Below are positions 10,959 to 61,861 of a stretch of DNA of 64,000 nucleotides, in pieces (position 1 is the stretch's first letter; the number at the start of each line of letters is the position of its first letter). The translations under genes and the position numbers were made by a program. Source of the DNA: Lingula anatina (taxonomy: Eukaryota > Animalia > Brachiopoda); the NCBI GenBank assembly GCA_051362555.1, contig CM120640.1, forward strand, positions 28,730,503-28,794,502. The letters are read 5' to 3'. Under the pieces are notes generated by a model. It was not told the DNA's origin, ran no database searches, and saw only the letters and a program-made list of their open reading frames with translations.

Positions 10959-10982
10959 TTAATTTATTTTTTCTCATTCTAG

Positions 10983-12561: not shown

Positions 12562-14396
12562 TTAGTAACGGATTAACTGTCTCAGCTTTGTGAGTATCCA
12601 ATATTTTATTTTCTTCATCCTACTTAGTATAGCTTTCCTTTGGGGCTTGGACACTATATAAAGGAAAAGCATATATGTGAAATGAGGCTCATATTATCTC
12701 TTTGAAAAATTTCATTGAGGTATTCTCTTCACATCTTGATACTTATACACATACCAAATTTAGAACGGGAATGTTAAGAAGAATGGAAAAAAATTTACAT
12801 TGAATTCTGCTAGTTGTTGAATAATGAAATAAAATACCTTTTCCCTCTGTAGTCGGAGCTAATTTTTCATCATCAAGAGGGATTTCTACAAATCCTGTGG
12901 AAAAACAAAAATTACTGTCAAGGCTTAATATCATGGTGCCGTATTAGAATTGTAGTTATATTTGTGTAAGGAAGGGATCTTTTCTATTAGAATACAATTT
13001 GTTAAATATGCTTTGCTTGGGTGAAAAAAAAAGTAGAATAACTTTTGCACTTCACAACATTTGAGTAGCTAACTGTCATTTAAGAAAAAAAATTCTGAAC
13101 AGTTTTGGGTTTCATATTTATATGTTAGATTAAAGTCCTGATACTGTACCTTGATCAATACTGCTTTCCTTTTCCCAAAATGTTCGACAGCCAAAGGTAG
13201 AATCTGTCTGCACAAACACAGCCTCTCTCTGTACCCGCTCTGGGACTAGAACACCGCTGCTGGGTGTAAGTTTTCTCAGGTGATAGATGCCCTCCACAGC
13301 TGAAAAAAGGTACAAGCTATATTAATAAATGAATGGAAAGGGTCCATATCTGCATTAGAAAAACAATCATAAAAATTCCTTGTATCTCAGGCATTTGTTT
13401 TATACTATTTCCAAAGCTGCAAATTTACAAGCATGGAGGGAGGCTTTTACCTTGAAGTACACAGTCATCTTTTCCAAAAAATGTACAGCAGCCATTTGTG
13501 GAAACTGCCTGTACAAATACATTGTCTTTTTGTTCCTGCTTTGGAACTAGAACAGCAACACTGGGTGTACTGTTTTGTGAATGGTAAATGCCCTTAAGGA
13601 CTGGAAATGAAAAATAAATATTGATGTTAGATTCATTCATCTTTAATAACAGTCATATCAAAAATAAAAGATGTACTTCTGATTGTGAAATACTTCAGAT
13701 GCAAACAGATGCCCATAGCTATTTTCTCACCTTTTTCATCACTCCATCTTTCTATCATTTCCATAACAAAGGACTCCAATTTTAACATTTTAAACTGAAA
13801 ATGTTGAGAAAATAAAAAACAAAATAAAAAATTAAATAAAAAAAAAATAAGAAAAAGAATAAATAATTTTTTTTAAAAATGAAAGAAAGTAAGAAAAAGA
13901 AAGACAGATAAAAATAATTAAACCAATGGATAACAATGAAAGCAAATATAAATGTTATGACAGATAATTCCAACTCAAAGTAACATTAAAGGAAATCTAG
14001 GAAACTTTCAAAACGTACGTAAGATAAAACCCAATCAAGGAAGTTTTCGATAAAAACAATTTATTTGGCTTGTCTTCATTTGGTGTTTATTTACTTTATT
14101 TACGAAGGTTCTTCTGCTGTTTTTTTTTTAATTTAATTTTGTTCAATTTTTTAAAACTTTTAAACGTCCAAAGCTGTAGATCTAAATGTCCGCGAGAAGT
14201 TTTTGCATATAGCCGTACGAAAATTTCTTTTGCCGATTTTTCGTAAAATGTATGCCCACATGCATAAAAAACATTTAAGAAGAAAAGTAACTGGCGTGAT
14301 TTAATTACTCTAACATATAAAACATCATAAAAATATTATCGTCTTCGATTAAATGAAAATATCTTCCTGAATTTTTTCGATACTCACCTCGCTCAT
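12562..14396 (-). CDS. Six-exon gene of unknown function, copy A, 173 aa
   Basis: Exons 14388-14396, 13731-13794, 13451-13600, 13150-13299, 12838-12894, 12562-12653; all GT-AG, intron phases 0,1,1,1,1. Product: MSEFKMLKLESFVMEMIERWSDEKVLKGIYHSQNSTPSVAVLVPKQEQKDNVFVQAVSTNGCCTFFGKDDCVLQAVEGIYHLRKLTPSSGVLVPERVQREAVFVQTDSTFGCRTFWEKESSIDQGFVEIPLDDEKLAPTTEGKVSKPQRKAILSRMKKIKYWILTKLRQLIRY*. Confidence 0.8.
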
Positions 14397-15130
14397 TGAA
14401 AAAATGCGCAAATCTGCCGCTTTTGTTGCTAGGCACGCTCTCCAATGTGATTGGCTGAAAGTTCGCTGAAACTCGAGCGTTTACGTTTTTTTTCCGCCTC
14501 CGACATACATGCAATGGAAAAGAGTGACGCAGACGCCTGAAATATTTCACAATATTTGATCGGTTGTCAGGATTCCATATCCCGTAATGAGTGATGGGTG
14601 CTAGCAAATATACATTTCATTACAAAATAGGCACGTTGCCAAAGATGGTATTTTTTTTTGTCAGTCAGAATTCTCTGAAATTCTCGTTTTGTTCGTTCAA
14701 ATATGGCAATATCCAAGGAATAATTTACACATGAAATTAAGCTTCTTTCATTATTATTTCAGAACTTCAAAACACAATTTTGAAAGCTACGAGGACTTAA
14801 AAGCTATAAATTTGCGTACTCAGTACGTCTTTGACCTCATAACTACCAACCCGTAATTTTATTTATTTTTCAAATTTATATGGGATTTGCTGAACAAAAA
14901 GTCATTTTGTAAGTCAGCATTATTTTAACAAAAGTTATTGTTTTTTTTTTTTTTCATGTACTTTAACTGTGTTCGCTCCATTTTGATTTACTTCATCTTT
15001 GTTGGGTTTTTTTTGCTGAGCAAAAAGTCATTTTGAAAGTCAGCTTTTACAAACTTTGTCTTTTTTTTATGTACTTTAACTGTGTTCGCTCCATCAGTGC
15101 CAAACCGTATTTTTGTTCTACTTCATTTTT

Positions 15131-15476
15131 GGGTACTTTTGTAGTATATACCCCCCCCCCCCCCAACCCTGTAACTTTCACTCTTCAAATAGTTTTTTTT
15201 ACATTTTCCTGTTCATCTATGTCAAAACTGTTAAAATAAAATGTTATTGTAAATACCTGTGGTCTTGACTGCAAGATGCATGGTAGATTCTCACATTGTA
15301 TTTCAATGGGCTGGATTAAACTTGATTAAAACTCGAAAAAGACCACAGGTAATTACAAAAACATTTTATTTAAACAGCTTTGACATAGATGAACAAGTAA
15401 ATGTAAAATATTATGAAAATCTGCTTGAAAAGTGAAAGTTACAAGGTGGGGGGGGGGGTATACTACAAAAGTACCC
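15131..15476. mobile_element. ~346-bp MITE with long (~140-bp) imperfect terminal inverted repeats and a 6-bp TSD
   Basis: gggtacttttgtagtata...tatactacaaaagtaccc, flanked by ATTTTT on both sides. The empty site cttcatctttgttgagg is at ~1072-1088 and ~23504-23520. Confidence 0.8.
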
Positions 15477-17218: not shown

Positions 17219-17633
17219 TCAGTATTTGACTAGCTGTCGCAGCTTGGTCATCATCCAAAACTTAAATTTCTTCATCCTACTTAGGATGGGTGTCTTCCTG
17301 GGCTTGGACACTATATATCAAGGAAAAAGTTTATATGTAAAATGGGGGCACATATTTTCTCTGTAAAGAATTTTATTAAGACATATTTATAGATCTTGAT
17401 TATAATACAAATGTCAAATTGAGTACATTTCACTTGGGATCATTGTAAAACCATCTAAATCACTTGTTACACCTTACTTTACATTCAAATCTGCCATCAC
17501 CTAATGCTTTGAAATTAATTTTTTACTTTGTTTTATTGTTTTATAAAATTTGAACACAATATACCTTCTCCCTCAGTAGATGGACCTAATTTTTCATCAT
17601 CATCATCATCATCAAGATCAATTTCTTCAAACA
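17219..17633 (-). other. Intact duplicate exon 5'/6' pair downstream of copy B; candidate alternative terminal exons
   Basis: Exon 5' 17565-17633 (VFEEIDLDDDDDDEKLGPSTEGE) and exon 6' 17219-17310 (VSKPRKTPILSRMKKFKFWMMTKLRQLVKY*). AG/GT sites intact; phase 1, compatible with exon 4. Confidence 0.6.
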
Positions 17634-18198
17634 CTGGTGGGAAAAAGAAATATTTGATTTAAAAAGTTTGATTCTTGAAACATTTGAGTTTTGTATTCAT
17701 CTTATCATTCACAGCAATTGTCGAAGTATTTATATTTTCTCATTCTAGGAAAGTTAAAAGAACTGGGGAACAAGGTTCTAAAGCCCTTCAAATGGAATGT
17801 CTACTGACAATTTCAAATCACAGCAAGATCCAAATACAGGATCATGTTCTGTGCAGTTTCAACAAAATGCAAAATAGATTAAAAAAATATCAAGGGTGAT
17901 GATCCTTTATACCACAAGTACAAGTTTTCCAGGTATTGGTCCAGTCAGAAGAAGTCGCTATAAAAACTTTTCTAAAATTGGGAATGTAGCTGGCTTAATC
18001 ATCCTTTTTCAGATGCCTTATAATAAATAAATTATATAAAAATGGTTTAGCTCAGTAGCAAGGATTGTTCTGATATTTATCAACTTGTTTAAAAGATAAG
18101 CCAAGAAAAAGCTATGAGGAATAAAGACAAGAATTTCCTTCATTGGCAAAATGACAGCTGAAGCATGGTTTTTTTTTTAAATATAAATTTAAGGTGAT

Positions 18199-20290: not shown

Positions 20291-20321
<31 letters not shown>

Positions 20322-20503: not shown

Positions 20504-21058
20504 ATTTTACTCAATCCACTCTCTGCTCAGAGTGTGAGGGCCATATGTAAATTTGTAAACAGTGCAATTAAAAAGTGTGTTCCTGCATGGATGGGAATAG
20601 TTTACTACATAAATTATTATTTTATATTTGTATTAGTTAGAGAGCCTGTAAATGTAAACCATTTCTTTGTGCTTAATAAATTATTATTATTATAAAATAC
20701 TGCAATTTGTTGTCTTTACGATATCATTTATTATAAATATAAATTTATATGATATATACATAGCTTAAGGGGAATTGACATCAATATATAAAGAAATTAA
20801 GCAACTGATATTGCAAAACAAGTAATATAATAATAATAAGCAAAATATATTTACTGTGGTATTCTGTTTACATATATGTACAGACATGAAACAAAATTTC
20901 ATGCATACTATATACAACCTGAACAAGTAAAAGCTCTCAAGATTGTTCATAATTTCCATTGTAGTTAATGGGTGCATATACATGGGTGGCGTTTCATGCA
21001 TGCACAGTATTTGAGTTATTTTTTTCATTCAGTTTTTATGAAAAAAAAAGAAAAATAG

Positions 21059-22930
21059 TCATTTTAGTATTAACTGCTGCAGCTTGGTGAACATCCAACA
21101 TTTTAATTTCTTCAGCCTCATTAGTATTGATGTCCTCCTGGGCTTGGACACTATATATATAAAGGAAATGCATATATGTAAAATGAGGCTCAAATTATCT
21201 CTTTGAAAAAATTCATTGACATATACTCTTCACATCTTGATACTTATACACATACCAAATTTAGAAGGGGAATGATTAAGAAGAGTGGAAAAAAATTTTA
21301 CATTGAATTCTGCAAGTTGTTGAATAATGAAATAAAATACCTTTTCCCTCTGTAGTTGGAGCTATTTTTTCATCACCAAGAGGGATTTCTACAAATCCTG
21401 CAGAAAAGTAAAAATTGTTGTCAAGGTATAATATCATGGTGCCATAATAGTGGAATTGTATTTGTGTAAGGACGAGATCTTTTCTATTAGAATACAATTT
21501 GTTAAATGCGCTTTGCTTGGGTGAAAAAAAAAGTAGAATAACCTTTGCACTTCACAACATTTGAGTAGCTAACTGTCATTTAAGAAAAAAAATTCTGAAT
21601 AGTTTTGGGTTTCATATTTATATGTTAGATTAAAGTCCTGATACTGTACCTTGATCAATACTGCTTTCCTTTTCCCAAAATGTTCGACAGCCAAAGGTAG
21701 AATCTGTCTGCACAAACACAGCCTCTCTCTGTACCCGCTCTGGGACTAGAACACCACTGCTGGGTGTAAGTTTTCTCAGGTGATAGATGCCCTCCACAGC
21801 TGAAAAAAGGTAAAATCATGGAAATTTTTGCTGTCTATATACAAGCTATATTAATAAATGAATGGAAATGATCCATATCTGCATTTGAAAAAAAAACAAT
21901 CATAAAGGATTCCTTGTATCTCAAGCATTTGTTTTATACTATTTCCAACACTGCAAATTTACAAACATGAAGGTAGGCTTTTACCTTGAAGTACACAGTC
22001 ATCTTTTCCAAAACATGTACAGCAGCCATTTGTGGAAACTGCCTGTACAAATACATTGTCTTTTTGTTCCTGCTTTGGAACTAGAACAGCAACACTGGGT
22101 GTACTGTTTTGTGGATGGTAAATGCCCTTAAGGACTGGAAATGAAAAATAAATATTGATGTTAGATTCATTCATCTTTAATAACAGTCATATCAAGAATA
22201 AAAGATGTACTTCTGATTTTGAAATACTTCAGATGCAAACAGATGCCCATAGCTATTTTCTCACCTTTTTTATCACTCCATCTGTCTATCATTTCCATAA
22301 CAAAGAACTCCAATTTTAACATTTTAAACTGAAAATGTTGAGAAAATAAAAAACAAAATAAAAAATTAAATAAACAAAAAATAAGAAAAAGAATAGATTT
22401 TTTTTAAAAAAATGAAAGAAAGTAAGAAAAAGAAAAACAAAAAATATTAAACCAATGGATAACAATGAAAGCAAATATAAATGTTATGACAGATAATTGC
22501 AACTCGAACATTAAATTAAGGAAATCTAGGAAACTTTCAAAACGTACGTAAGATAAAACCCAATCAAGGAAGTTTTCGATAAAAACAATTTATTTGGCTT
22601 GTCTTCATTTGGTGTTTATTTACTTTATTTACGAAGGTTCTTCTGCTGTTTTTTTTTTTTTTTATTTAATTTTGTTCAATTTTTTAAAACTTTCAAACGT
22701 CCAAAGCTGTAGATCTAAATGTCCGCGAGAAGTTTTTGCATATAGCCGTACGAAAATTTCTTTTGCCGATTTTTCGTAAAATGTATGCCCACATGCATAA
22801 AAAAACATTTAAGAAGAAAAGTAACTGGCGTGATTTAATTACTCTAGCATATAAAACATCATAAAAATATTATCGTCTTCGATTAAATGAAAATATCTAC
22901 CTGAATTTTTTCGATACTCACCTCGCTCAT
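21059..22930 (-). CDS. Six-exon gene of unknown function, copy B, 173 aa
   Basis: Exons 22922-22930, 22265-22328, 21985-22134, 21650-21799, 21341-21397, 21059-21150; GT-AG, open frame. Last exon VSKPRRTSILMRLKKLKCWMFTKLQQLILK*. Confidence 0.8.
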
Positions 22931-24646: not shown

Positions 24647-24680
<34 letters not shown>

Positions 24681-24850
24681 AAAAACATAAGTTGTCTATT
24701 GTTTTAAAGGAACACTGGATGGCTATCTGGGAAAAGTCTTGCCTTAGAGTCAATTTGATCTTTTTATATCTTGTAACACAGCTTCAGGTATAAGATAACA
24801 ATATGTGGCCTCTTTCAGTCTCTTTAAATATAAAAATGTAGTGATTGTAG

Positions 24851-27710: not shown

Positions 27711-28092
27711 TCAGTATTTGACTAGCTGTCGCAGCTTGGTCATCACCCAAAACTTAAATTTCTTCATCCTGCTAAGGCTATAAGGATGGGTGTCTTCCTG
27801 GGCTTGGACACTATATATCAAGGAAAAAGTTTATATGTAAAATGGGGCACATATTTTCTCTGTAAAGAATTTTATTAAGACATATTTATAGATCTTGATT
27901 ATAATGCACTTGGGATGATTATAAAACCATCTAACTCACTTGTTACAACTTACTTTACATTCAAATCTGCCATCATCCAATTGAAAATAATTTAATTGTT
28001 TTATAAAATTTGAACACAATACCTTAATTCTCCCTCAGTAGATGTACCTAATTTTTCATCATCATCATCATCAAGATCAATTTCTACAAACC
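27711..28092 (-). other. Duplicate exon 5'/6' pair downstream of copy C with mutually compensating +4/+8 insertions
   Basis: Exon 5' 28023-28092 (70 nt, AAG acceptor) and exon 6' 27711-27810 (100 nt). Spliced: GFVEIDLDDDDDEKLGTSTEGELSVQAQEDTHPYSLSRMKKFKFWVMTKLRQLVKY*. Confidence 0.55.
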
Positions 28093-28545
28093 CTTGTGGG
28101 GAAAAAAGAAATGTTTGATTCGAAAATTTTGATTCTTGAAACATTTGAGTTTTGTATTAATCTTATCATTCACAGCAATAGTGGCAGTATTTATATTTTC
28201 TCATTCTAGGAAAGTTAAAAGAACTGGGGAACATGGTACTTAAGCCCTTAAAATGGAATGTCTACTGACAATTTCAAATCACAGCAAGATCCAAATACAG
28301 GACCATATTCTGTGCAGTAAATTTTTGAGTTATTATTATTATTGAAGTGTAGCAATTTCAGTTGATAGAATGATTTCCCTAGATTGGTTCACTATTTAAA
28401 ATATATAATTTAAACAACATTTTATGACAAAGGCTGTGATAATTTTTCTTTGTTTAAAGGTTGTGTTCAATTTGGCATGCATTGATACAAGGTATGTATT
28501 AAGGGCGTTTTCTTTGAGGCATTTGAAATAAAAATCTCTTTTCGG

Positions 28546-30425: not shown

Positions 30426-31225
30426 TTAGTAACGGATTAACTGTCTCAGCTTTGTGAGTATCCAATATTTTATTTTCTTCATCCTACTTAGTATAGCTTT
30501 CCTTTGGGGCTTGGACACTATATAAAGGAAAAGCATATATGTGAAATGAGGCTCATATTATCTCTTTGAAAAATTTCATTGAGGTATTCTCTTCACATCT
30601 TGATACTTATACACATACCAAATTTAGAACGGGAATGTTAAGAAGAATGGAAAAAAATTTACATTGAATTCTGCTAGTTGCTGAATAATGAAATAAAATA
30701 CCTTTTCCCTCTGTAGTCGGAGCTAATTTTTCATCATCAAGAGGGATTTCTACAAATCCTGTGGAAAAATAAAAATTACTGTAAAGGCTTAATATCATGG
30801 TGCCGTATTAGAATTGTAGTTATATTTGTGTAAGGAAAGGATCTTTTCTATTAGAATACAATTTGTTAAATACGCTTTGCTTGGGTGAAAAAAAAAGTAG
30901 AATAACCTTTGCACTTCACAACATTTGAGTAGCTAACTGTCACTTAAGAAAAAAAAAGTTCTGAACAGTTTTGGGTTTCATATTTACCAGGGCCGTAGCC
31001 TGAGCAAAATGCCAGGGGGGGCAGTAAGCGGACACGAGGGGGCGAAGCCCCGGAGGGGGGAGGGTGTGTCCCCCTCCCACGATTGTTGAATGATTGTCTA
31101 GTGGCCATGAGTGCATTTTCTCACAGAATTGATACCAACTTTGCAATTATTTTTTTACCTTTGCGATTATTATTTATTTTTTTTTTTTTTTGCACCTCAA
31201 ATCCCAGGAGGGGCAGCTGCCCCCC

Positions 31226-31260
<35 letters not shown>

Positions 31261-32591
31261 AGGCTACGGCCCTGTTTACATGTTAGATTAAAGTCCTGAT
31301 ACTATACCTTGATCAATACCGCTTTCCTTTTCCCAAAATGTTCGACAGCCAAAGGTAGAATCTGTCTGCACAAACACAGCCTCTCTCTGTACCAGCTCTG
31401 GGACTAGAACACCACTGCTGGGTGTAAGTTTTCTCGGGTGATAGATGCCCTCCACAGCTGGAAAAAGGTAAAATCATGGAAATTTATGCTGTCTAAATAC
31501 AAGCTATATTAATAAATGAATGGAAAGGGTCCATATCTGCTTTAGAAAAAACAATCATAAAAATTCCTTGTATCTCAGGCATTTGTTTTATACTATTTCC
31601 AACGCTGCAAATTTACAAACATGAAGGTAGGCTTTTACCTTGAAGTACACAGTCATCTTTTCCAAAACATGTACAGCAGCCATTTGTGGAAACTGCCTGT
31701 ACAAATACATTGTCTTTTTGTTCCTGCTTTGGAACTAGAACAGCAACACTGGGTGTACTGTTTTGTGGATGGTAAATGCCCTTAAGGACTGGAAATGAAA
31801 AATAAATATTGATGTTAGATTCATTCATCTTTAATAACAGTACTAGTCATATCAAAAATAAAAGATGTACTTCTGATTGTGAAATACTTCAGATGCAAAC
31901 AGTTGCCCATAGCTATTTTCTCACCTTTTTCATCACTCCATCTTTCTATCATTTCCATAACAAAGGACTCCAATTTTAACATTTTAAACTGAAAATGTTG
32001 AGAAAATAAAAAATAAAATAAAAAATTAAATAAACAAAAAATAAGAAAAAGAATAAATAATTTTTTTAAAAAATGAAAGAAAGTAAGAAAAAGAAAGACA
32101 GATAAAAATAATCAAACCAATGGATAACAATGAAAGCAAATATAAATGTTATGACAGATAATTGCAACTCGAACATTAAATTAAGGAAATCTAGGAAACT
32201 TTCAAAACGTACGTAAGATAAAACCCCAATCAAGGAAGTTTTCGATAAAAACAATTTATTTGGCTTGTCTTAATTTGGTGTTTATTTACTTTATTTACGA
32301 AGGTTCTTCTGCTGTTTTTTTTTTAATTTAATTTTGTTCAATTTTTTAAAACTTTCAAACGTCCAAAGCTGTAGATCTAAATGTCCGCGAGAAGTTTTTG
32401 CATATAGCCGTACGAAAATTTCTTTTGCCGATTTTTCGTAAAATGTATGCCCACATGCATAAAAAACATTTTAGAAGAAAAGTAACTGGCGTGATTTAAT
32501 TACTCTAACATATAAAACATCATAAAAATATCATCGTCTTTGATTAAATGAAAATATCTTCCTGAATTTTTTCGATACTCACCTCGCTCAT
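30426..32591 (-). CDS. Six-exon gene of unknown function, copy C, 173 aa
   Basis: Exons 32583-32591, 31925-31988, 31639-31788, 31308-31457, 30702-30758, 30426-30517; GT-AG, open frame. Last exon identical to copy A. A MITE sits in intron 4. Confidence 0.8.
30988..31274. mobile_element. 287-bp MITE in intron 4 of copy C
   Basis: 14-bp TIR cagggccgtagcct / aggctacggccctg with a 5-bp TSD tttac. The empty site catatttacatgttag is at ~44423-44438. Confidence 0.85.
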
Positions 32592-41082: not shown

Positions 41083-41087
<5 letters not shown>

Positions 41088-41828: not shown

Positions 41829-41891
41829 CTGGTGGGAAAAAAGAAATATTTGATTCGAAAATTTTGATTCTTGAAAAAAATCTCTTTTCAG

Positions 41892-42747
41892 AAACAGTAC
41901 AAAAAGGCTATTGAAGACTGTACCAAAGCACTAGAACTTAATCCTAATTATCTCAAAGCACTTTTAAGGAGGGCAGAAATGTATGAAAAGACTGAAAAAT
42001 TAGATGAGGCATTAGAAGATTACAAAAAATTAATTGAAATGGATCCAACACAACATACTGTGAGGGAAGCATGTATTGTAAGTCTGGTATCATAAAAACA
42101 GTCTCAAATACTACATATTTGTGTTACATGGTTTTCTGTAATGTGCCCATGTGTAGTAAGTGAAATATTAAAATGGTGGTCATATATGTTTAAAAGCATT
42201 GCAAATTTGCAATAGAAAAAATGCGAATAGTACTAAAATGTAACAGTGCAATATTTAATTAAATTTAAAGATATTAAAATAATTACAAGTCAGCATATTG
42301 TTTTTATTCATAAGAGAACTAATCAGTGAACTTTTGAATCTGATTTAATCTGTGTTTATTTTCATCTCTTCAGCGATTGCCACAGCAAATAACAGAAAGA
42401 AATGAGAAAATGAAAGATGAAACGATAGGTAATTTTCATCTTTCAGTCCTACATTTTGAAATATTTTACATTAAAGCAAAATCTTTTAGACTGGTCTTTT
42501 GCTCTTTGATTTTAATAAAAATCAACATTTTTATTAAAAATTTGATTCTTGAAACATTTGAGTTTTGTATTCATCTTATCATTCAGAGCAATTGTCAAAG
42601 TATTTATATTTTCTCATTCTAGGAAAGTTAAAAGAACTGGGGAACATGGTACTAAAGCCCTTTGGAATGTCTACTGACAATTTCAAATTACAGCAAGATC
42701 CAAATACAGGATCATATTCTGTGCAGTTTCAACAAAATGCAAAATAG
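41892..42747 (+). pseudogene. TTC1: TTC1 3' fragment with three intact exons: 41892-42077, 42374-42428, 42623-42747
   Basis: All AG/GT sites and the reading frame are intact (KQYKKAIEDCTKALELNP...QFQQNAK*), but the unit has no upstream TTC1 exons. Confidence 0.85.
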
Positions 42748-43770
42748 ATTGAAAAAATATCAAGGGTGGTGATCCTTTATACCACAAGTACAAGTTTACC
42801 AGGTATTGGTCCAGTCAGAAGCTGCAATTAGAACTTTTCTAAAATAGAGAATGTAGCTGGCTTCATCATCCTTCAGATGCCTTAAATGGTTTAGCTCAGT
42901 AGCAAGATTATTCTGATATTTATCAACTTGTTTAAAGGGGTACCACACAGCAGATATTCCTAACATAAGCCAACTAAAAACTATAAGGGATAAAGACATA
43001 AGAATTTGCTTGATAGGCAAAATGACTGCTCAGGCATGGGTTTTTTTTTAAATATTAATTTAAGGTGATTTTTAAATATTTCCTGCCAAAATGAAGTCTT
43101 GATGCCTATATCTTGTCTATCTACATAAGGAAGCAGTGCTGTGTCATCAATAGGTGCTGATGGTGAGAGAAAATCTGATTGTGAATAGAGTAAAACAAGA
43201 CGCCTTTTTAACTTTTTGAGCAAGCAGGAAGGAAAAGACATCTATTAACCCAAGAGAAAGAAATGCAGATTGTCCTTATTTTAGAGTACAATTCTTTTTA
43301 TATCTGTTCGAGTTAAAGAAAACAATCTATGGCCTCATTCATTCGATGTCTCTTTTGAGTTGGTTGTAGTTCACTTGGATATAAGACTGATTGCAACAAT
43401 AAAATAATGCAATTTGTTGTCTTTATATGATTTCTTTATCATAAATATATATACATATGTGATATGTACATAACTTTTCACATAAATATAATAAATGTGT
43501 ACAAATTAAGTAACTGATGCTGCAAAACAAATAATAATAATAACGAACAACTTTTTATATATATTTACCATGGTATTCTATTTACATATGTACAAACATG
43601 AAACAAAAAATTCATGTTTACTATATACAACCTGAACAAGTAAAAGCTCTCAAGATTGTTCATAATGTCCATTACAGTTAATGGGTGCATATACATGGGT
43701 GGTTTTTCATGCATGCACAAGGTCCAAGTTATTTTTTCATACAGTTTTTATGAAAAAAAAAATAGTCATT

Positions 43771-45490
43771 TTAGTGCTTCATTAACAGTCGTAGCTTTGC
43801 CATCAACCAAGATTTTAATTTTTTCACCCTGCTAAGGATGGTAGTCCTGGGCTGGGACACTGTATATAAAGGAAAAGCATATTTGTGAAATGAGACACAA
43901 ATTATCTCTTTAAAAAATTTCATTGAGGTATACTATTCACATTTTGATATTTATACAGATACCAAATTTAGAACGGGAAAGATTAAGAAGAATGGAAAAA
44001 AATTTACATTGAATTCTGCTAGTTGTTGAATAATGAAATAAAATACCTTTTCCCTCTGTAGTTGGAGCTAAGTTTTCATCATCAAGAGGGATATCTACAA
44101 ATCCTGTGGAAAAACAAAAATTATTGTCAAGGCGAAATATCATGGTGCCGTATTAGAATTGTAGTTGTATTTGTGTAAGGAAGGGATCTTTTCTATTACT
44201 ATACAATATGTTAAATATGCTATGCTTGGGTGAAAAAAAAAAGTAGAATAACCTTTGCACTTCACAACATTTGAGTAGCTAACTGTCGTTTAAGAAAAAA
44301 ATGTGAACAGTTTTGGATTTCATATTTGCTTGTACGCCGTTAAGCCCTGAGACTTTACCTTGATCAATACTGCTTAGTAGCTAACTGTCATTTAAGAAAA
44401 AAATGTGAACAATTTTGGGTTTCATATTTACATGTTAGACTAAAGTCCTGATACTCTACCTTGATCAATACTGCTTTCCTTTTCCCAAAATGTGCGACAG
44501 CCAAAGGTAGAATCTATCTGCACAAACACAGCCTCTCTCTGTACCCGCTCTGGGACTAGAACACCGCTGCTGGGTGTAAGTTTTCTCAGGTGATAGATGC
44601 CCTCCACAGCTGAAATAAGGTAAAATCATGGAAATATTTGCTGTTAAAATACAAGCTATATTAATAAATGAATGGAAAGGATCCATATCTGCATTTGAAA
44701 AAAAAACAATCATAAAGAATTCATTTTATCTCAGGCATTTGTTTTATACTATTTCCAATGCTGAAAATTTACAAACATGAAGGTAGGCTTTTACCTTGAA
44801 GTACACAGTCATCTTTTCCAAAAAATGTACAGCAGCCATTTGTGGAAACTGCCTGTACAAATACATTGTCTTTTTGTTCCTGCTTTGGAACTAGAACAGC
44901 AACATTGGGTGTACTGTTTTGTGGATGGTAAATGCCCTTAAGGCCTGGAAATGAAAAATAAATATTGATGTTAGATTCATGCATCTTTAATAACAGTCAT
45001 ATCAAGAATAAAAGATGTGCTTCTGATTTTGAAAACCTTCACATGCAAACAAATGCCCCTAGCTATTTGCTCACCTTTTTCATCACTCCATCTTTCTATC
45101 ATTTCCATAACAAAGGACTCCAATTTTAACATTTTAAACTGAAAATGTTGAGAAAATAAAAAACTAAATAAAAAATCATATAAACAATAACACCCTAACA
45201 AAAAATAAGAAAAAGAATGAATAATTTTTTTAATGAAAGAAAGTAAGAAAAGGAAGGACAGAAAAAAATAATTAAACCAATGAATAACAATGAAAGCAAA
45301 TATAAATGTTATGACAGATAATTCCAACTCGAAGTGGCAGTTGGATTCCTGTTTGGGTAAGAGTAAAAGAAATCTAGGAAACTTTCAAAACATATGATAA
45401 AAACCCCATTCAAGAAATTTTTCAATAAAAACAATTATTTGGCTTGTCCTCATTTGGTGTTTATTTATTTCATTTTTGAAGGTTCTTCTG

Positions 45491-45537
<47 letters not shown>

Positions 45538-46865
45538 AAAATGGAGCTCAAATGAGTTAACATGAGAATGTGGGATACACACTGGCGAAAAACATCAAGG
45601 ATAAATGGTGCTTTTTGTATTAAATTTTGTTCACTTTCAAACTTTCAAACTTTCTAAAAGCATTTTGAATCATTCAGTTATATATTCCATTTCATACTTC
45701 AACAATAAAGCTCAGAAATAGCCTTTTACGTAAGGCTCATAACATATATGGTATTGTCCATACGGTTAGCGTGCAGTTCATTTCTATCAATGGAAAACTT
45801 GGAATCATGATAAATGAAGAAAAATTAACCACTTTTTGACAGAATAAAGTGTCCAAGAAGCAAAATGAGATTGCAATACAGATAAATTTATCAAAAAATA
45901 AATGTTTTTAATTTACTAATTATTCAATTTAATGTTTTTTAACATGCAAATCAAAATAATGTACGTTTTGAATCCAGAAATTGGCGGCCATTTTGGATTT
46001 TTATACCCTGAACAAAATCTCAAAACAATTTAAATTATTCAGTCATACATTTCATACCATGACCTGTGCAATAAATCCTCCATTAAGTAGTCTGAGATGT
46101 TTTATACTGAGAAAGGCTTGTTGACATATCAAAACAAAAAGCCCATTTTATGTGGTGGCCATCTTGGATTAGAGCCATCTGTGTTCAAATGTACAATTTT
46201 GTGATAAATTAACTGTTAAAAATTAAAAATATAGACTTCAACTTATTCAAATACATCAAAACATGTAAAATATTCCCAATTTTTGGTTAATAAAAAAAAA
46301 ATCAAATTTAGGTATTTGTATTTTTTCACAAAAAGTAAGGAAAATGGCCGCCATCTTGGATTCAGTCGCCATCTTGAAAAATGTAAAGTGCCTGAAAAAT
46401 CAAAGAAGGCCAAAGTACTTGTGATCAGTGCAAATTTTGATAATATTAAGTTGTTAAGTAACTTTTAAATCAATTTTTGTATTTACAGTTGACACATGAA
46501 TTTACTGGCGGCCATCTTGGATTTGGCCTGTTTCCGGTACAAACGGACACTTTTTCAAGCCGGAAACAAGCAGAAATGAAAAATTCAGGTTCTAAACTAC
46601 AATAATCAATCATAAAACCTTTGCCTGACGGGGGGTGCAGCCAAATTGGATTTTTTGGCCTTTGGCTCATGGACTATATAGCCGTACGAAAATTTCTTTT
46701 GCCGATTTTTCGTAAAATGTATGCCCACATGCATAAAAAACATATAAGAAGAAAAGTAACTGGCGTGACTTAATTACTCTAGCATATAAAACATTATAAA
46801 AATATTATTGTCTTCGATTAAATGAAAATATCTTCCTGAATTTTTTCGATACTCACCTCGCTCAT
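43771..46865 (-). CDS. Six-exon gene of unknown function, copy D, 172 aa
   Basis: Exons 46857-46865, 45075-45138, 44795-44944, 44460-44609, 44047-44103, 43771-43859; GT-AG, open frame. The last exon has an in-frame 3-nt deletion (VSQPRTTILSRVKKLKSWLMAKLRLLMKH*). Confidence 0.8.
45533..46676. mobile_element. One-ended DNA transposon fragment (Academ-like) in intron 1 of copy D
   Basis: Absent from intron 1 of the other copies. Contains repeated GGCGGCCATCTTGGA(T)-type motifs; the terminus reads TAGTCCATGAGCC on the minus strand. The other end was lost with ~80 bp of host intron. Family assignment is from memory. Confidence 0.55.
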
Positions 46866-49404: not shown

Positions 49405-51424
49405 AGTATTTGACTAGCTGTCGCAGCTTGGTCATGATCATCGATCCAAAACTTAAATTTTTTTATCCTGCTTAGGATGGGTGTCTTAATTCCTGGGCTT
49501 GGACACTTCCCAAAGGCTTTCACCAGCTGGCATCGTGGACTCTACCTCAGCCATGCCGTTTTCGGTATTTGTTGTTGTGGTTTCTGTAACAGCTTGGTTT
49601 TTATAGAATAGAGATGTTAGCCCTATTCAAACCCCCAACCTGGAGGGCCAGTGAGTGCTCTTCGTCTGGTTTCTACCCTTTAACATGTCTGACTTGGGTG
49701 ACTCTCCCAGGAGATAACTCTCCCACCAGCATAGCTCTCAGGGTCCTCGAGACGCACAAGCCCCCCAACCAGCAACAAAGTTGCACTCTCTGGGAGGTAT
49801 CATATATATGTGTGTGGTATTCTTTTTACCATTGTACAAATATTATGAAACAAAATTACATGTGTTTTATGTACAACATGCACAGGCTTTTTCAGGAATG
49901 CTAATTAATTCCATTCAAAACTGCAGTGAATGGATGCATAGATAGGTATTTGTTCATGCATAATGTCCAAGTGATTTTTCTCATACAGTTTATGAAAAAA
50001 TTGTGATCAGTCATTTTAGTATTTGATTAATTGTCGCAGCTTGGTCACGATCCAAGACTTAAATTTCTTCATCCTGCTTAGGATGGGTGTCTTCCTGGGC
50101 TTGGACACTACATGTTTCGTATAGGTTTCTGATGTTCCAGGTCCCTATCCTGGTGTTGGCTTTGGTTGTCAGAAGAGTAGTCTGCGCACTGTCTTCCCAA
50201 AGGCTTTCACCAGCTGGCATCGTGGGCTCTACTGGAGAAGACTCTACCTCAGCCATGCCGTTTTCGGTATTTGTTGTTGTGGTTTCTGTAACAGCTTGGT
50301 TTTTATAGAATAGAGATGTTAGCCCTTTTCAAACCCCCAACCTGGAGGGCCAGTGAGTGCTCTTCGTCTGGTTTCTACCCTTTGACATGTCTGACTTGGA
50401 CGACTCTCCCAGGACATAACTCTCCCACCAGCAAAGCTCTCAGGATCCTCGAGACGCACAAGCCCCCCAACCAGCAACAAAGTTGCACTCTCTGGGAGGT
50501 ATCATATATATATGTGTTATTCTATTTACCATTGTACAAATATTATGAAACAAAATTACATGTGTTTTATGTACAACATGCACAGGCTTTTTCAGGAATG
50601 CTAATTAATTCCATTCAAAACTGCAGTGAATGGATGCATAGATGGGTATTTAATTGTTCATGCACAATGTCCAAGTGATTTTTCTTATACAGTTTATGAA
50701 AAAAATTGTGAACAGTCATTTTAGTATTTGATTAATTGTCGCAGCTTGGTCATGATCCAAGACTTAAATTTCTTCATCCTGCTTAGGATGGGTGTCTTCC
50801 TGGGCTTGGACACTACATGTTTCGTATAGGTTTCTGATGTTCCAGGTCCCTATCCTGGTGCTGGCTTTGGTTGTCAGAAGAGTAGTCTGCGCACTGTCTT
50901 CCCAAAGGCTTTCACCAGCTGGCATCGTGGACTCTACTGGAGAAGACTCTACCTCAGCCATGCCGTTTTCGGTATTTGTTGTTGTGGTTTCTGTAACAGC
51001 TTGGTTTTTATAGAATAGAGATGTTAGCCCTATTCAAACCCCAACCTGGAGGGCCAGTGAGTGCTCTTCGTCTGGTTTCTACCCTTTAACATGTCTGACT
51101 TGGGTGACTCTCCCAGGAGATAACTCTCCCACCAGCATAGCTCTCAGGGTCCTCGAGACGCACAAGCCCCCCAACCAGCAACAAAGTTGCACTCTCTGGG
51201 AGGTATCATATATATATGTGTGCTATTCCATTCAAAACTGCAGTGAATGGATGCATAGATGGGTATTTGTTCATGCACAATGTCCAAGTGATTTTTCTCA
51301 TACAGTTTATGAAAAAATTGTGAACAGTCATTTTAGTATTTGATTAACTGGCGCAGCTTGGTCATGATCCAAAACTTAAATTTCTTTATCCTGCTTAGGA
51401 TGTGTTTCTTCCTGGGCTTGGACA
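49405..51424 (-). repeat. ~705-bp chimeric tandem repeat: RTE 5' end alternating with duplicate exon 6' of the six-exon gene
   Basis: RTE 5' pieces at ~49507-49797, 50111-50498 and 50816-51203 (the latter two ...TRIGTWNIRNLYET, start of the APE endonuclease). Exon 6' copies at ~49405-49505, 50016-50107, 50721-50812 and 51333-51424. Confidence 0.8.
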
Positions 51425-54935: not shown

Positions 54936-57038
54936 ATCAGATCGGAGAAGAAATCTCGAACATTCTCGTCTTGTCACTTGTTACAAAGGGAACTCTTTTT
55001 ACAAAGGGATTGTGGACAAGATTTCAGAATCTAAGTCAAGCCAGCTAAGTGTGCGTCCTGACATATGGAAATGTCAACACTTCCTCAAGTTTTTGCAGAT
55101 TTCTCACAAACCGGATCAAGGATATTTGTAAGGACTTAACTCAAAATTCTATCACAGGATCCTCAGAATCAGATCCATTACCAAGTGAATTTCAAGACAG
55201 GTGTGCCAGTCAGGGTGGTGAGGCCCAACTGAGCAATTTCCTATCGGTCTCAGAGAAGGATATTATCTCTGTTATAAAGGGGATGAATTCTAAGTTTTGT
55301 GCTCTGGATCCCATGCCAACATATATATAGTGAAAGAGTGTATTAGTGTGTTATCTCCAGTTCTCCTGAGATTAGTAAATCTGTCTTTCTCAACAGGTAT
55401 CTTTCCATCAAACTGCAAAACTGCAATTGTTAGACTATTACTTAAAAAGCAAGGGCTGTGTAAAAATGTCCTGAAAAACTATAGACTAATATCAAATCTA
55501 CCCATTTTAGGTAAATTTCTTGAAAAAATGGCATGTTCCCAAATAAGCAGCTATCTGGCTGAAAATAAACTCTTTGGGAAATTTCAGTCTGCCTATAGAG
55601 AAGGCCGCAGCACTGAGACAGCTCTACTTCGAGTCCACAACGACATAATGCTTGCCCTGGATAAACAAAGAGATGTCATTTTAGTTCTTCTAGACCTTTC
55701 AGCAGCTTTTGATTCCATAGATCATAATAATCTTCCTCACAGGTTGCAGCATCGCTTTAGAGTGAATGGCCTTGCACTTAGTTGAATTGGTTTACCTCAT
55801 ACCTGAAAAACAGAACACAAAGGGTTTCAGTAGAGTCGGTTTTATCTCAGCCAGTTAACTTGGAGTATGGTGTCCCACAAGGGTCTGTGTTAGGTCCGAT
55901 CATATTCTCACTATACATGTTACCTGTAGAAGATATACTAAAGCATGGTTTGAACACTGTTATTTTTGCAGATGACACACAAGTATATATTACATGCAAG
56001 AGCAGCCAGTCTGCAACAATCACTTCTATGGAGACTTGTCTTGCAGAGATTCGAGAATGGATGAAAGTGAACACGTTGGCTTAAAATGATAGTAAGACTG
56101 AGTTGATATGGTTTACATCAAGGTTGAAGGCAAATAGAAAAAATGCAGCAAATGCCAACATTTGCATAGGAAATGTTCTTATAAAACATTATCAAGTTCT
56201 GTAAAAGATCTGGGAGTTACCCTCGATGAAAATGGCACTATGGGGAAGCGTGTATCTGAAGTGTGTAAATCAACATCTTATGCACTATGGTGCATTGGAA
56301 AAATAAGGAAAGTGTTAGATAACAAAAACCACTGAAAAATTAGTACATGCATTTATATCATCAAGATTAGATTACTGCAATAGTCTCCTCTTTGGTATTT
56401 GTGACTATCAAAGTAAAAAGTTACAAGTTATTCAAAACTCAGCTACAAGACTGGTTTGTCAAATTAAGTGCAATAGTACACACCATATCACTCCCATTCT
56501 GAAAGAATTATACTGGCTGCCTGTGAAGCAGATGGTTGATTTTAAAGTACTTTGTATTATTTTTAAGGTGATCCATTCACAAGGACCATTATATTTATCT
56601 GATCTTATCTGTTTTAACTTACCACGGCGGTCCACACATTTTAATACTGAGAATGATTATATTTTAGAACATTCTGTTTTAGAGAAGGGGTGCCTCAAAA
56701 GTTATGGAGATCGTGCTTTTATAATCTACGCCCCAAAAGTGTGGAATGCCCTACCAAATTTTATTAGAAAAACAGAAGACTTTGTCCATTTTAAATCTCT
56801 TTTAAAGACCCACATTTTTAATTCTGTCTGTATCTCTTAGATTTTTTTAAAAAATATATATATGTGTATTTTAATAAGATTGATTTTTAGTAGTGTAAAT
56901 TTTAAATGGTTTCCAATGAGAGTTTATGATTAAAATATTGTAGTAATTTTAATGATTTTAGTATATTAGCCAATATTGTAAGGCGCCTTGAGATAGAATG
57001 TAAGGCGCCATATAAGAATCTTATTATTATTAATATTA
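54936..57038 (+). mobile_element. Decayed 5'-truncated L2-clade LINE
   Basis: CALDPMPT, FQSAYREGRSTETALLRVHND, LLDLSAAFDSIDH, GVPQGSVLGP, FADDTQVY, SRLDYCNSLL, HITPILKELYWLP, GDRAF..APKVWNALP, with frameshifts and a (TTA)n tail. 5' limit approximate. Confidence 0.85.
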
Positions 57039-57112
57039 TTACAACTTACTTTACATTCAAATCTGCCATCACCTAATTGAATTAATCGTTTTATAAAATT
57101 TGAACACAATAC

Positions 57113-57175
57113 CTTCTCCCTCAGTAGATGGACCTAATTTTTCATCATCATCATCAAGATCAATTTCTACAAACC
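57113..57175 (-). other. Intact duplicate exon 5' downstream of copy E; partner exon 6' at 51333-51424
   Basis: ccag|GG...G|gtattg, 63 nt, GFVEIDLDDDDEKLGPSTEGE. Partner VSKPRKKHILSRIKKFKFWIMTKLRQLIKY* lies beyond the two LINEs. Confidence 0.55.
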
Positions 57176-57856
57176 CTGGTGGGAAAAAAGAAATATTTGA
57201 TTTGTAAATTTTGATTCTTGAAACATTTCAGTTTTGTATTCATCTTATCATTCACAGCAGTTGTCGAAGTATTTATATTTTCGCATTCTAGGAAAATTAA
57301 AAGAACTGGGGAACTTGGTACTAAAGCCCTTAAAATGGAATGTCTGCTGACAATTTCAAATTACAGCAAGATCCAAATACAGGATCATGTTCTGTGCAGT
57401 TTCAACAAAATGCAAAATGGATTGAAAAAATATACCTTTATACCACAAGTACAAGTTTTCCAGGTATTGGTCCAGTCAGAAGAAGTCGCTATAAAAACTT
57501 TTCTAAAATTGAGAATGTAGCTGGCTTAATCATCCTTTTTCAGATGCCTCATTATAATAAATTGTTTAGTTCAGTAGCAAGATTATTCTGATATTTATCA
57601 ACTTGTTTAAAAGGGTACCACACAGCAGATATTCCTAACATAAGCCAAGAACAATCCTCTTATTATGTCCATGAACAATTCAACTCCAAGAGGTTTCTCA
57701 CTAAATTTCTTTCAGCTTAAGCGGCTTAGGATTCTGGCATACCAGTTTCAGTAGGCGTGACAGACAGCAAAGCCACTTACATTGATTGCAATTTAGCGAG
57801 AATTCCCTCGTAGATAGAGGTTAATTTGCAAGGTCCAACAGACTATAAACTATCTA

Positions 57857-59353
57857 CACTCAAGGAAAAAAGAATTGCAACATTTTTTTTTTCGAAAATT
57901 CCCAAGAAATATGGGTACATTTGGAAAAATGGCTTGGCATCATGATTTCACTCTAAATTAGGCTGAAGACAGGTTAACAGATTTCTTGTTTCCGCTTGAC
58001 TAATTGTGAGGACAATAAAGGGTGAAAGGGTGCATTTAGGGATTTTTTAAACACTAACTTGTGTTTGAAACTAAGAGTGGAGTTTTACCACATGGTTAAC
58101 TGTGCTCAAGCCTTACCTATAAAGGGGCACCAGAATGAAGCCAAAAATACACTTCGACCAAGGCAAATGCCACACTTTGTCACAGCCAGAGAGAGATCGA
58201 GCTATTGGCATGCTCCAAGCTGGACAGGGTTGTCTTGCTGTCGCCAGGATGTTTGGAGTCCACCACTCTACCATTGCTCTTCTTGCTGAGCGATACCATG
58301 CCATTGGTTCCTCTAATGACTGCCCTTGTACTGGTCGCCCCCTTATAACGGCCGCTGCAACAAGACCGTACCAACTGGCTGGTACATCTCTGTAACGGGT
58401 TCTGGTCCGCAGCCGAGACCATAGGAACACACCATAGGCCAGAGTCAGCCAGAACCATTTGTAATCACCTCCGCGCTGATGGTATCCAATGGTATCAGCC
58501 ATATGTTGGATCAGTACTTACCCCCCAACATCGCTGAGTTTGGGTCGAATGGTGCACTGCACATAATTGTTGGACTTCGCAGAAGTGGTTGGGAGAGGTA
58601 TGCCAAACCTTGTGTGCACCAAGTGAACTGGTGGGGCAGTCCCAGTGTCATGGTTTGCGCAGCCATATAGGGAAGTCACCAGACAGACCTGGTTTTCATT
58701 CAAGGAAACCTCAATGGTCTCCGTTTTTAGGATGAGATCCTGAGGCCTGTGGTGCTACCTTTTTTGGGACCAAGTTGGGGTGGGAGCACTATTCCAGCAC
58801 TACAATGTGCGACCCCATGTGGCCTGTGTGTGCACCAGCTTCCTGGAAGAGAATAACGTCCATATCCTGCCTTGGCCAGCCATCAGTCCGGACTTAAATC
58901 CCATTGAAAATGTCTGGGATCTGCTCAGTTTGCATGTCCGCCGACATGAACATCCTCCTGAAACTCAGCAGCAGCTGAGGGAGGCACTGGTGGAAGAATG
59001 GGCAGCGATTCTACAGGAGCAACTCAGACACTACTGCCGATCCATGAGGTGAGGAATAACCGCTGTCCAAGATGCTAACAAGGGGTCACGTGAACTATTG
59101 ACAGTATGATGCAATTCCTGCCACTTTTGTTTTTTTTTCTTTTTTTATTTTTATTTATTTTTTTTGGGGGGGGGGGTGCTCTATTGTTTGGTTGTGTGAT
59201 TGGACTCAAAAATGTCAAAACGCTGAGAAAGTTTGCCTGAGGATTAGAAATGGATGTAGGGTTCATATAAAAACTGGTGGATTTCAAAAATAAAGTTATT
59301 CTGCCCACAAAAACTCCCAAAACTGAGTGTTGCATTTCTTTTTTCCTCGAGCG
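57857..59353 (+). mobile_element. Decayed Tc1/mariner transposon
   Basis: TA-flanked imperfect TIRs cactcaaggaaaaaagaattgcaaca / tgttgcatttcttttttcctcgagcg. Broken transposase with HTH (RAIGMLQAG...VARMFGVHHSTI) and WPAISPDLNPIENVWD. Confidence 0.85.
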
Positions 59354-59899
59354 TATTTTACTTAACCCACTCTCTGCGCAGAGTGTGAGGGCTATATGTA
59401 AATTTGTAAACAGTGCAATTAAAAAGCATGCATCCTTGCATGGATGAGAATAGTTTATTACTTAAATTATTATTTTATATTTGTATTAGTTAGAGAGCCT
59501 GTAAATGTAAACCATTTCTTTGTACTCAATAAACTATTATTATAAAATACTGCAATTTGTCTATACATGATTCCATTTATTATAAATATATATATATGAT
59601 ATATACATAGCTTAAGGGTAAATTGACATCAGTATATATAGAAATTAAGCAACTGATATTGCAAAACAATATAATAATAATAAACAAAATGTATTTACTG
59701 TGGTATTCTATTTACATATGTACAAACATGAAAAAAATTTTCTTGTTTACTATATACAACGTGAACAAGTAAAAGCTCTCAAGATTGTTCATAATATCCA
59801 TTGCAGTTAATGGGTGCATTTACATGGGTGGCGTTTCATGCATGCACAGTGCTTTAGTTCTTGTTTTCATTCAGTTTTTGTGAAAAAAATGAAGAACAG

Positions 59900-61861
59900 T
59901 CAGTATCTGATTAACTGCCTTAGTTTGGTAAGTAGCCAAAATTTAAATGTCTTCAGCCTCCCTATGATTGGTACCCTCCTGGGCTTGGACACTATATATA
60001 TAAAGGAAAAACGTGTGAAATGAGGCTCAAATTATATCTTTGAAAAATTTCACTGACGTATACTCTTCACATCTTGATACTTATACAGATACCAAATTTA
60101 GAAGGGGAATGATTAAGAAGAGTGGAAAAAATTTTACATTGAATTCTGCAAGTTGTTGAATAATGAAATAAAATACCTTTTCCCTCTGTAGTTGGAGCTA
60201 ATTTTTCATCACCAAGAGGGATTTCTACAAATCCTGCGGAAAAATAAAAATTGTTGTCAAGGCATAATATCATGGTGCCGTAGTAGAATTGTATTTGTAT
60301 AAGGAAGGGATCTTTTCTATTAGAATACGATTTGTTAAATAGCTTTGCTTGGGTAAAAATAAAAAAAGTAGAATAACCTTTGCACTTTACTTCAGAACAT
60401 TTGAGTAGCTGTCATTTAAGAAAAAAAATTTGTGAACAGTTTTGGGTTTCATATTTACATGTTAGATTAAAGTCCTGATACTTTACCTTGATCAATACTG
60501 CTTTCCTTTTCCCAAAATGTGCGACAGCCAAAGGTAGAATCTGTCTGCACAAATACAGCCTCTCTCTGTACCTTCTGTGGGGCAACAGTACTGCCACTGG
60601 ATGGAAATACTCTCAGGTGGTCAATGCCCTCCACTGCTGAAAAGAATTAAAGCCATCAATATTTATGCTTACTAACTTCAAGTTATAATAAGTGAATTGA
60701 AAGGCATACTTGCATGCATTTGAAAAAAAAAAAACTTGAGTATCTCAACACTGGGTGTTTTGTACTACACATATTTGCTGGCATTTGTATGTTATCAGTA
60801 AATGCATTGAATTTCAGGAACATGAAGAGAGGCTTTTACCTTGAGGTACGCAGTTCTCTTTTCCAAAAAATGCACAGCATCTGAGTGTGGAATCTGCCTG
60901 TACAAATACATTATATTTTTGTTCCTGCTTTGGAACTAATACAGCAACACTGGGTGTATTGTTCTGTGGATGGTAAATGCCCCTTGGAACTAGAAATGAA
61001 AAAAATAAATATTGATGTTAGATTCATCATCATCAGTTGAAGTCACAAAAGTAAATAAGATATGAGTATTTTTGATTTTGAAATATATAACAAGCAAACA
61101 AATCCTCCAATTTCTCACCTTTTTTATCTCTCCATCTTTCTATCATTTCCATAACACCAAATGACTTCAATTTTAACATTTTAAACTGAAAATGTTGAGA
61201 AAACAAAAAATAAAGTGAAATAAAAAAAATAATAAAACATTGAAAAACAATTAGAAAGAAATCATAAAACATCAACAGGTTAACAAATATAATCCAATAC
61301 GAGAAACTAATAATTCCATCTCAATGTAACACATATTTTGTACTAGGGTTCAACAAGTATAAAAAGAACTCAAAGAAACGCCCAAAACATAAAATAAAAA
61401 CTAATAAAATAATCAACATTCTCTATGAAATATCTAATTTTGTTAGTCCTTTCATTCCGTATTTGATGTGTACTCATTTCAGTTCGAAGGTCCTAACGCA
61501 GCATGTAAAATGATCAAAGTTGATTCCCATAACTAGAATATGGGGCATAAGTAGTTCAAAAGCAGTGAGGATAATCTCCAAAATCTCTACTGTTTGTATT
61601 CAGTTTTCTTTCTTAAATTTCAAACGTCCATGAAAGCAGTGTCACCCAAGTTAAATTTTTTGAAATAATTTTTCGCACATATGAATTTTTTAAAGTTCAT
61701 GTCTCAAAGTATGTTTGGCTAAATGCATTAAAAACTGCCTAGAAAGAAAAAGCAATGACTGTGGTTTGTTTATTACAATAAATAAATAATAATAATAACC
61801 ACTGCCTTACATTGAATAAAATAAATACTGACATAAAAATGTCAATACTCACCTCGCTCAT
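59900..61861 (-). CDS. Six-exon gene of unknown function, copy E (terminal, most divergent), 174 aa
   Basis: Exons 61853-61861, 61119-61185, 60840-60989, 60487-60636, 60177-60233, 59900-59991; GT-AG, open frame, in-frame 3-nt insertion in exon 2. Product: MSEFKMLKLKSFGVMEMIERWRDKKVPRGIYHPQNNTPSVAVLVPKQEQKYNVFVQADSTLRCCAFFGKENCVPQAVEGIDHLRVFPSSGSTVAPQKVQREAVFVQTDSTFGCRTFWEKESSIDQGFVEIPLGDEKLAPTTEGKVSKPRRVPIIGRLKTFKFWLLTKLRQLIRY*. Confidence 0.82.

Follow-up and report, generated by a model that had tools for sequence, protein, structure and literature searches.

A tandem array of an apparent orphan six-exon gene in the brachiopod Lingula anatina, with an island of divergence in its last exon

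The stretch of DNA considered here belongs to the brachiopod Lingula anatina (NCBI GenBank assembly GCA_051362555.1, contig CM120640.1, positions 28,730,503 to 28,794,502 of the forward strand) and carries a tandem family of a small spliced gene, the last exon of which forms an island of divergence between copies. The whole stretch, called the window below, is 64,000 nucleotides (nt) long, with 32% G+C, no N and nested tandem segmental duplicates; positions are counted from its first letter. An earlier note, made from the letters alone, had proposed six minus-strand exons with GT-AG borders, spliced into an open frame of 172-174 amino acids (aa) in each of five copies. This is confirmed. With exon edges derived by aligning the five copy regions, and copies counted within the 64-kb window, all 25 introns of copies A to E are bordered by GT and AG, including at the exon 6 acceptor of copy E, and the five spliced frames are open. 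The exons measure 9, 64, 150, 150, 57 and 92 nt, with two exceptions, exon 2 of copy E (67 nt) and exon 6 of copy D (89 nt). These 3-nt changes had been presented as the only ones, and as far as lengths go they are, but a 5-nt deletion in the final codons of exon 6 of copy B had been overlooked: the last three residues are altered and a later stop is used, so that the 92-nt length of that exon is coincidental. A blind scan (pyrimidine-rich YAG, 150 nt, then GTR, framing a stop-free phase-1 exon) retrieved ten exons from the minus strand, every one of them exon 3 or 4 of copies A to E, and none of this 150-nt kind from the plus strand of the window, used as a control for chance.

All copies are read from the minus strand. 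Copy A covers 12562..14396 (exons 14396-14388, 13794-13731, 13600-13451, 13299-13150, 12894-12838 and 12653-12562; 173 aa), copy B 21059..22930 (exons 22930-22922, 22328-22265, 22134-21985, 21799-21650, 21397-21341 and 21150-21059; 173 aa), copy C 30426..32591 (exons 32591-32583, 31988-31925, 31788-31639, 31457-31308, 30758-30702 and 30517-30426; 173 aa), copy D 43771..46865 (exons 46865-46857, 45138-45075, 44944-44795, 44609-44460, 44103-44047 and 43859-43771; 172 aa) and copy E 59900..61861 (exons 61861-61853, 61185-61119, 60989-60840, 60636-60487, 60233-60177 and 59991-59900; 174 aa). To these five full copies a sixth, Z, has to be added at about 460..581, where the promoter block, exon 1 and its donor are visible at the left edge of the window, beyond which the remainder would extend. 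Copy C is nearly identical to A, with the same exon 6, and its intron 4 has received an insertion of about 300 nt. This insertion (30985-31275) is GC-rich, with a poly-G run and inverted ends, and is probably a small non-autonomous element. Intron 1 of copy D reaches 1718 nt, versus about 593 in A-C. The unit of the array sets this gene tail-to-tail with the 3' exons of a plus-strand TPR gene (Pfam TPR_1, E 2e-16), presumably TTC1, a name which comes from the earlier note, Pfam confirming TPR only.

That we are dealing with a spliced protein-coding gene, as had been proposed, is very probable, in view of its structure, its open frames, its avoidance of insertions and deletions (indels), a RefSeq model and sense-strand reads. 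In five-way alignments, exons 2-6 hold two in-frame indels in 525 nt, besides the terminal 5-nt deletion of copy B, as against 35 in the 720 nt of introns 2-5 (27 of them not multiples of 3), a comparison to be read with the reservation that introns, being AT-rich, are more prone to indels. Copies A-D have no indel at all in exons 2-5, versus 18 in their introns. At least 107 coding substitutions have created no stop (chance 0.007), and the ratio of non-synonymous to synonymous divergence (dN/dS) between A and E is 0.37 (Fisher p 0.0003). The comparison of A with E and the avoidance of indels alike are marks of purifying selection in the past.

Transcription was followed on positions 11200-13806 in four of the nine RNA runs listed under the species label, 6-30% of each run being read. 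Minus-strand RNA lies on the gene at a depth of 1-3 in two runs (X1 and X4), confined to exons (3, 4 and 5), while the plus-strand TPR gene reaches a depth of 13-263. The bases counted in the bins at exon edges amount to about two reads times the exonic bases (ratios 2.03, 1.98, 2.05 and 1.95), an arithmetic that implies two reads spanning exons 3-4 and two spanning exons 4-5; as joints were listed from three reads upwards, none of this gene appears in the list. Splicing, for which the earlier note had suggested a check with RNA reads, finds support in exon-confined sense reads and these few implied junction reads. The frame is open, spliced and transcribed, with weak evidence for exons 1, 2 and 6. 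In run X7, reads on intron 4 (12940-13087) disagree with all five copies at six of the ten sites listed and run into foreign sequence at their ends, which suggests another copy or allele that carries an insertion.

Copy E is a mosaic of a diverged 5' half and an A-like 3' half: on the upper side of a breakpoint in exon 4, 121 of 490 sites differ from A, and on the lower side 30 of 562. Of the 1128 pairs of informative sites, moreover, 484 are incompatible. These two facts are the mark of gene conversion or unequal crossover between paralogs. The idea of a recent amplification has to be restricted to the 5' part of copies A-D, since the 5' half of E, the variants of exon 6 and several relic paralogs (isolated pieces corresponding to exons 5 and 6, named 5' and 6' below) are much older; gene conversion is the best explanation for the 3' half looking young.

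Within this homogenised 3' half, exon 6 (12562..12653 in copy A, minus strand) stands apart, and this, the main feature of the array, had gone without mention in the earlier note. Exon 6 has 31 variable columns in 82, intron 5 and the 3' untranslated region (UTR) together 73 in 443 (p 3e-5). The best 80-column window gathers 44 changes against a mean of 14, which none of 20,000 permutations reached, in a test that takes sites as independent and a region picked after inspection of the data. Among A, B, D and E, distances are 0.21-0.32 in exon 6, 0.05-0.10 in intron 5 and 0.07-0.17 in the UTR; between these copies and the relics they are 0.20-0.27, 0.29-0.42 and 0.26-0.33, respectively. The four tails are therefore as distant from one another as they are from relics with several-fold more distant flanks. 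Synonymous sites of exon 6 share in the raised divergence (dS 0.44-1.3, a value based on about 18 sites and on multi-hit codons), and its dN/dS is less than 1 in all pairs (0.24-0.67). Old lineages shielded from conversion account for this better than rapid amino-acid change of recent date, and exon 6 fits the description of a divergence island under gene conversion. That selection accounts for this divergence we hold to be somewhat more probable than not.

The gene is real and already partly annotated. A profile of exons 3 and 4 matched a single protein among 1766 candidates, XP_013413501.1 (LOC106175890, UniRef A0A1S3JTS7), an uncharacterized Lingula anatina protein of 162 aa, letter-for-letter equal to exons 3-6 of copy A, with identical joints 3-4, 4-5 and 5-6. 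Its UniRef cluster has one member, and the homolog searches did not find the further copies. The gene was thus not quite as unrecognised as the earlier note believed, though the family appears undescribed. The record differs at its 5' end, where it starts at an ATG inside intron 2 instead of using exons 1-2. That ATG is in frame in A-D and absent from E, while all five copies preserve exons 1-2 with their splice sites, which makes the 5' end of the earlier note the better model; the RefSeq start of LOC106175890 is probably wrong. Annotation is corrected on both counts, as the homolog searches had found one of at least six copies.

Other searches brought back no known family, as the note had anticipated. 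A second profile search matched one of 14 candidates, copy A's own record, and none of 11 candidates was a longer protein sharing exons 5-6. HMMER, run over 1.84 billion representatives, gave four matches (P0001-P0004). Three of these, P0002-P0004, were rejected as homologs: they are repetitive proteins, two of which are long and look bacterial, and each score adds up 5-10 short stretches. In Pfam, the six single exon frames had two matches and P0001 four (UBact, GAE_BBS1, DUF7459 and VEGF_C), all under cut-off; sequences of the PDB gave no match at E 10; the ESM Atlas gave no usable feature match, its structure comparison giving a template-modelling (TM) score of at most 0.36 by query with a model confidence (pLDDT) of 0.36; and Foldseek returned nothing for a one-repeat model of mean pLDDT 50. 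The family has no known domain, and its restriction to the lineage is a provisional reading, in that no homolog beyond the single Lingula record was found in protein collections, Pfam, PDB, Atlas or Foldseek. A literature search, mostly without subscription literature, found nothing naming the accessions or dealing with this gene, and a term search in the supplement of PMC4595640 met neither TTC1, RFX nor the motif.

What does the protein look like? Exons 3 and 4 (13150..13600 in copy A, minus strand) encode two 50-codon repeats of phase 1-1, 49% identical in protein, exon 5 (12838..12894, minus strand) an acidic spacer of net charge -2 to -4, and exon 6 a predicted helical tail of charge +8 to +10, devoid of Asp and Glu, with an invariant Trp and conservative swaps between copies. 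For P0001, AlphaFold predicts a helix spanning residues 135-161, with a pLDDT of 88-96 over the last three blocks. From a single sequence the tail alone is confidently modelled, the repeats remaining at a pLDDT of about 30, and one repeat modelled from 10 rows gave a low-confidence beta-hairpin (mean pLDDT 50). The hydrophobic moment of the tail lies above the shuffle mean in all five copies (22-residue window). There is no transmembrane or signal-like stretch, in the sense that the first 35 residues have no hydrophobic core by a hydropathy heuristic, which is not SignalP; the best 11-mers reach a hydropathy of 0.64-1.35 and are broken up by charges. Neither is there a dibasic site common to all copies. 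The absence of a signal peptide suggests a protein that is laid out like a cathelicidin and yet is probably intracellular. For the predicted tail to be an intracellular binding helix we would give an even chance.

Upstream of exon 1 lies a conserved, CpG-rich, promoter-like block (14397..14500 in copy A, minus strand) of about 105-113 nt, 89% identical between A and E, where intron 1 has diverged by about 25%. It contains a CCAAT motif, presumably for NF-Y, and, some 30-40 nt before the ATG, a half-site resembling an RFX X-box that is kept in all six copies including Z. The 9-mer of this half-site recurs in a probe for the X-box of DYX1C1, a human ciliary gene (PMC5024701). Human RFX factors have isoforms and targets specific to testis, and also act in other tissues (PMC5838959), so that the X-box is only a hint. 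Expression in ciliated or germ cells, suggested by these motifs, is a tentative proposal that we rate somewhat under even.

The explanation we prefer, while according it slightly less than an even chance, is that of a protein located inside ciliated or germ cells, combining a shared repeat body with a copy-specific cationic helix, the variants of which are kept by selection under conversion. Unequal crossover would have amplified a unit in which the gene is joined to the 3' end of the TPR gene convergent with it, and conversion would have homogenised the sequence from intron 4 through the 3' UTR. The tail variants would go back to old lineages, each of which withstood conversion on account of its own specificity of binding or targeting. 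The shared body would consist of the two 50-aa repeats, with the tail as an exchangeable address, its helix attaching to membranes or to an intracellular partner. Through its CCAAT and X-box-like motifs the promoter would limit expression to ciliated or germ cells, hence, perhaps, the small number of RNA reads. A broader proposal is more doubtful: these genes might represent a new class of modular intracellular brachiopod protein, with a constant two-repeat body and exchangeable cationic C-terminal helices as old as the oldest paralogs of the array, held apart by selection against conversion, a constant body with a variable tip, without secretion, and probably in sperm or ciliated cells.

A number of observations weigh against the preferred explanation. 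In exons 1-5, copies A-D show 3 synonymous and 15 non-synonymous differences for about 90 and 342 sites, which is neutral-like; the earlier claim of a family under selection thus stands on the dN/dS between A and E and on indel avoidance, and finds no purifying signal in that part of A-D. With only 18 such differences, the openness of all five frames, true as it is, is weaker evidence for A-D than it sounds. In exon 6 itself, a dN/dS below 1 in every pair means that there is no direct signal of positive selection; A and C have the same exon 6, hence not every copy is distinct; and indels together with a poly-T tract right after the stop could block conversion without selection. The hydrophobic moment has p<0.05 in one of the five tails with the 22-residue window and in none with an 11-residue window, so that strong amphipathy of the tail, considered as a candidate feature, is unsupported by comparison with shuffles. 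The X-box has one good half-site, the second being poor. As for RNA, no joint reached the threshold of three reads and each read pair may stem from one molecule, sense reads in the four runs were missing from exons 2 and 6, the mapped region excludes exon 1, and the runs have no stated tissue.

Much of this can also be read as neutral hitchhiking. One copy, or E plus one, would be functional, the others being young duplicates that had no time to decay, and the peak in exon 6 would reflect neutral escape from conversion via the nearby indels, a possible block, or else tracts from older paralogs located elsewhere. The neutral-like exons 1-5 of A-D, an array full of broken relics and transposon pieces, the further copies or alleles seen in run X7, the indels directly after the stop and the dN/dS of exon 6 all agree with this scenario, which we nevertheless think unlikely, if the least so among the rivals. 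It has to put the peak on the same 90 nt in four lineages, with homogenised sequence on either side, and it does not predict that A-D would be free of indels in exons 2-5. All four tails, moreover, keep frame, charge and Trp, while a simulated lineage with 12 random changes avoids stops, retains its moment and has no Asp or Glu with a probability of 0.22, hence, roughly, about 0.002 for four. A different kind of scepticism would see in part of the array an artefact of assembly, with A and C, or the blocks Z+A and B+C, being alleles placed in tandem. A and C differ at six coding sites and have exon 6 in common, their downstream blocks are 96-98% identical, and the heterozygosity of Lingula is 1.6% (PMC4595640). 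This is compatible with the other readings, yet it is the least probable of the rivals, given that the window has no N, that identity drops to 92-94% in other parts of the blocks, which also differ by large indels, and that B, D, E and the relics are left unexplained.

Two further scenarios concern what the tail does. In a host-defence precursor built like a cathelicidin, the body and the acidic spacer would mask a cationic peptide to be cleaved, with non-classical release or intracellular microbes as targets. As in bovine cathelicidins (PMC3932039), the genes are clustered in tandem and vary in a cationic last exon while their early exons are conserved, and the acidic exon 5 does stand immediately before the tail. 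We find this scenario improbable for want of a signal-peptide-like stretch (by the hydropathy heuristic), of a cathelin or other Pfam family above cut-off and of a dibasic site common to all copies; amphipathy is weak and expression very low in four runs. The tail might also be a basic helix binding nucleic acids or calmodulin in a sperm or germline protein evolving under genetic conflict, rather than a membrane address; gene families amplified in testis are known, as are basic helices that bind calmodulin and are anchored by a Trp. High positive charge with modest amphipathy is in keeping with such a role, as are the testis-specific isoforms and targets of human RFX factors (PMC5838959). The motifs involved are permissive, and the probability of this scenario is, if anything, a shade lower than that of the defence precursor.

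Our preferred explanation of the exon 6 peak, selection maintaining distinct tails under conversion, has counterparts. The peak at exon 5 of primate opsins has been described as a signature of selection against conversion, and the red/green opsin genes, like the RHCE/RHD model, likewise combine tandem paralogs, homogenised introns and a peak limited to one exon (PMC3924837). Islands of this type, as described there, involve two lineages, whereas the Lingula gene has four, is provisionally an orphan and is known from one species' sequence. Cathelicidin genes likewise lie in tandem and vary in the last exon, the early ones being conserved, and have four exons versus six (PMC3932039). The last exon of the Lingula gene does encode a variable cationic sequence, a predicted helix. 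A signal peptide is a further feature of cathelicidins. The Lingula gene has no signal-like stretch, no cathelin domain (Pfam, and PDB at E 10) and no sequence similarity to them; cathelin domain, exon number and signal peptide all failing, it is not a cathelicidin. With RFX-regulated ciliary genes such as DYX1C1 it has in common the same 9-nt X-box half-site near the first exon (PMC5024701), but a single good half-site only, and the protein resembles no known ciliary family. An orphan tandem array is by itself ordinary; it is the four-way island in exon 6 that merits follow-up. It points to the working end of a protein without homolog, domain or fold, so that function can be tested with four 30-residue peptides. 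If the explanation is true, this would be a clean four-way case of selection versus gene conversion, from a phylum whose gene families have hardly been studied.

The TPR fragments had been described as decaying, and most do, through frameshifted last exons (10983, 17749, 28210 and 57292), an acceptor changed from AG to GG (28546) and a truncation (12049), but a set of three exons at 41892..42753 (plus strand), the 3' end of a TPR gene, is intact, with an open frame and canonical sites. Since the window lacks the 5' exons of these fragments, their value as a neutral control is weak. About one third of the TPR-gene reads of run X1 carry, at six listed sites, the alleles of this intact fragment, and plus-strand reads with copy D alleles cross exon 5 of the gene (window 41892-44103); the 41892 end may thus be transcribed, reading through antisense into copy D, though its 5' exons lie outside the window. 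The relic paralogs, all on the minus strand, consist of exons 5' and 6' only and sit in or near the last introns of other TPR fragments. Exon 6' is present seven times, four of them open. At 17219..17638, within the last intron of a TPR fragment, exon 5' is accompanied by an open exon 6'; at 10563..10965 and 27711..28097 exon 6' is frameshifted by an 8-nt insertion and goes with a partial exon 5' in the former and an exon 5' in the latter; four exon 6' are in tandem at 49405..51424, the one at 49405 broken and those at 50016, 50721 and 51333 open; and an exon 5' is found at 57110..57180, with another at 41776-41833.

The larger organization of the window is itself repetitive. The block from Z to A (1-15027) resembles the block from B to C (20689-33146) at about 92-98% identity, a higher-order duplication. 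Between gene units, satellite arrays with a 161-bp period and common flanks occupy 2496-4566, 7679-8011, 18378-18772 and 24891-25515; they are reminiscent of Helentron-associated elements of molluscs and may promote unequal crossover. A tandem triplication of about 700 bp (49506-51232) bears relic exon 6' copies beside a retroelement-like piece. The minus-strand frames at 52000-54200, presumably with an endonuclease-like start, resemble in our judgement a second broken long interspersed nuclear element, Pfam giving no match at E 0.01 on 53598-53996. A broken retroelement without long terminal repeats at 55294-56837 retains a piece of reverse transcriptase (RVT_1, E 9e-13), and a broken Tc1/mariner-like transposase is present at 58123-59049 (DDE_3, E 3e-8).

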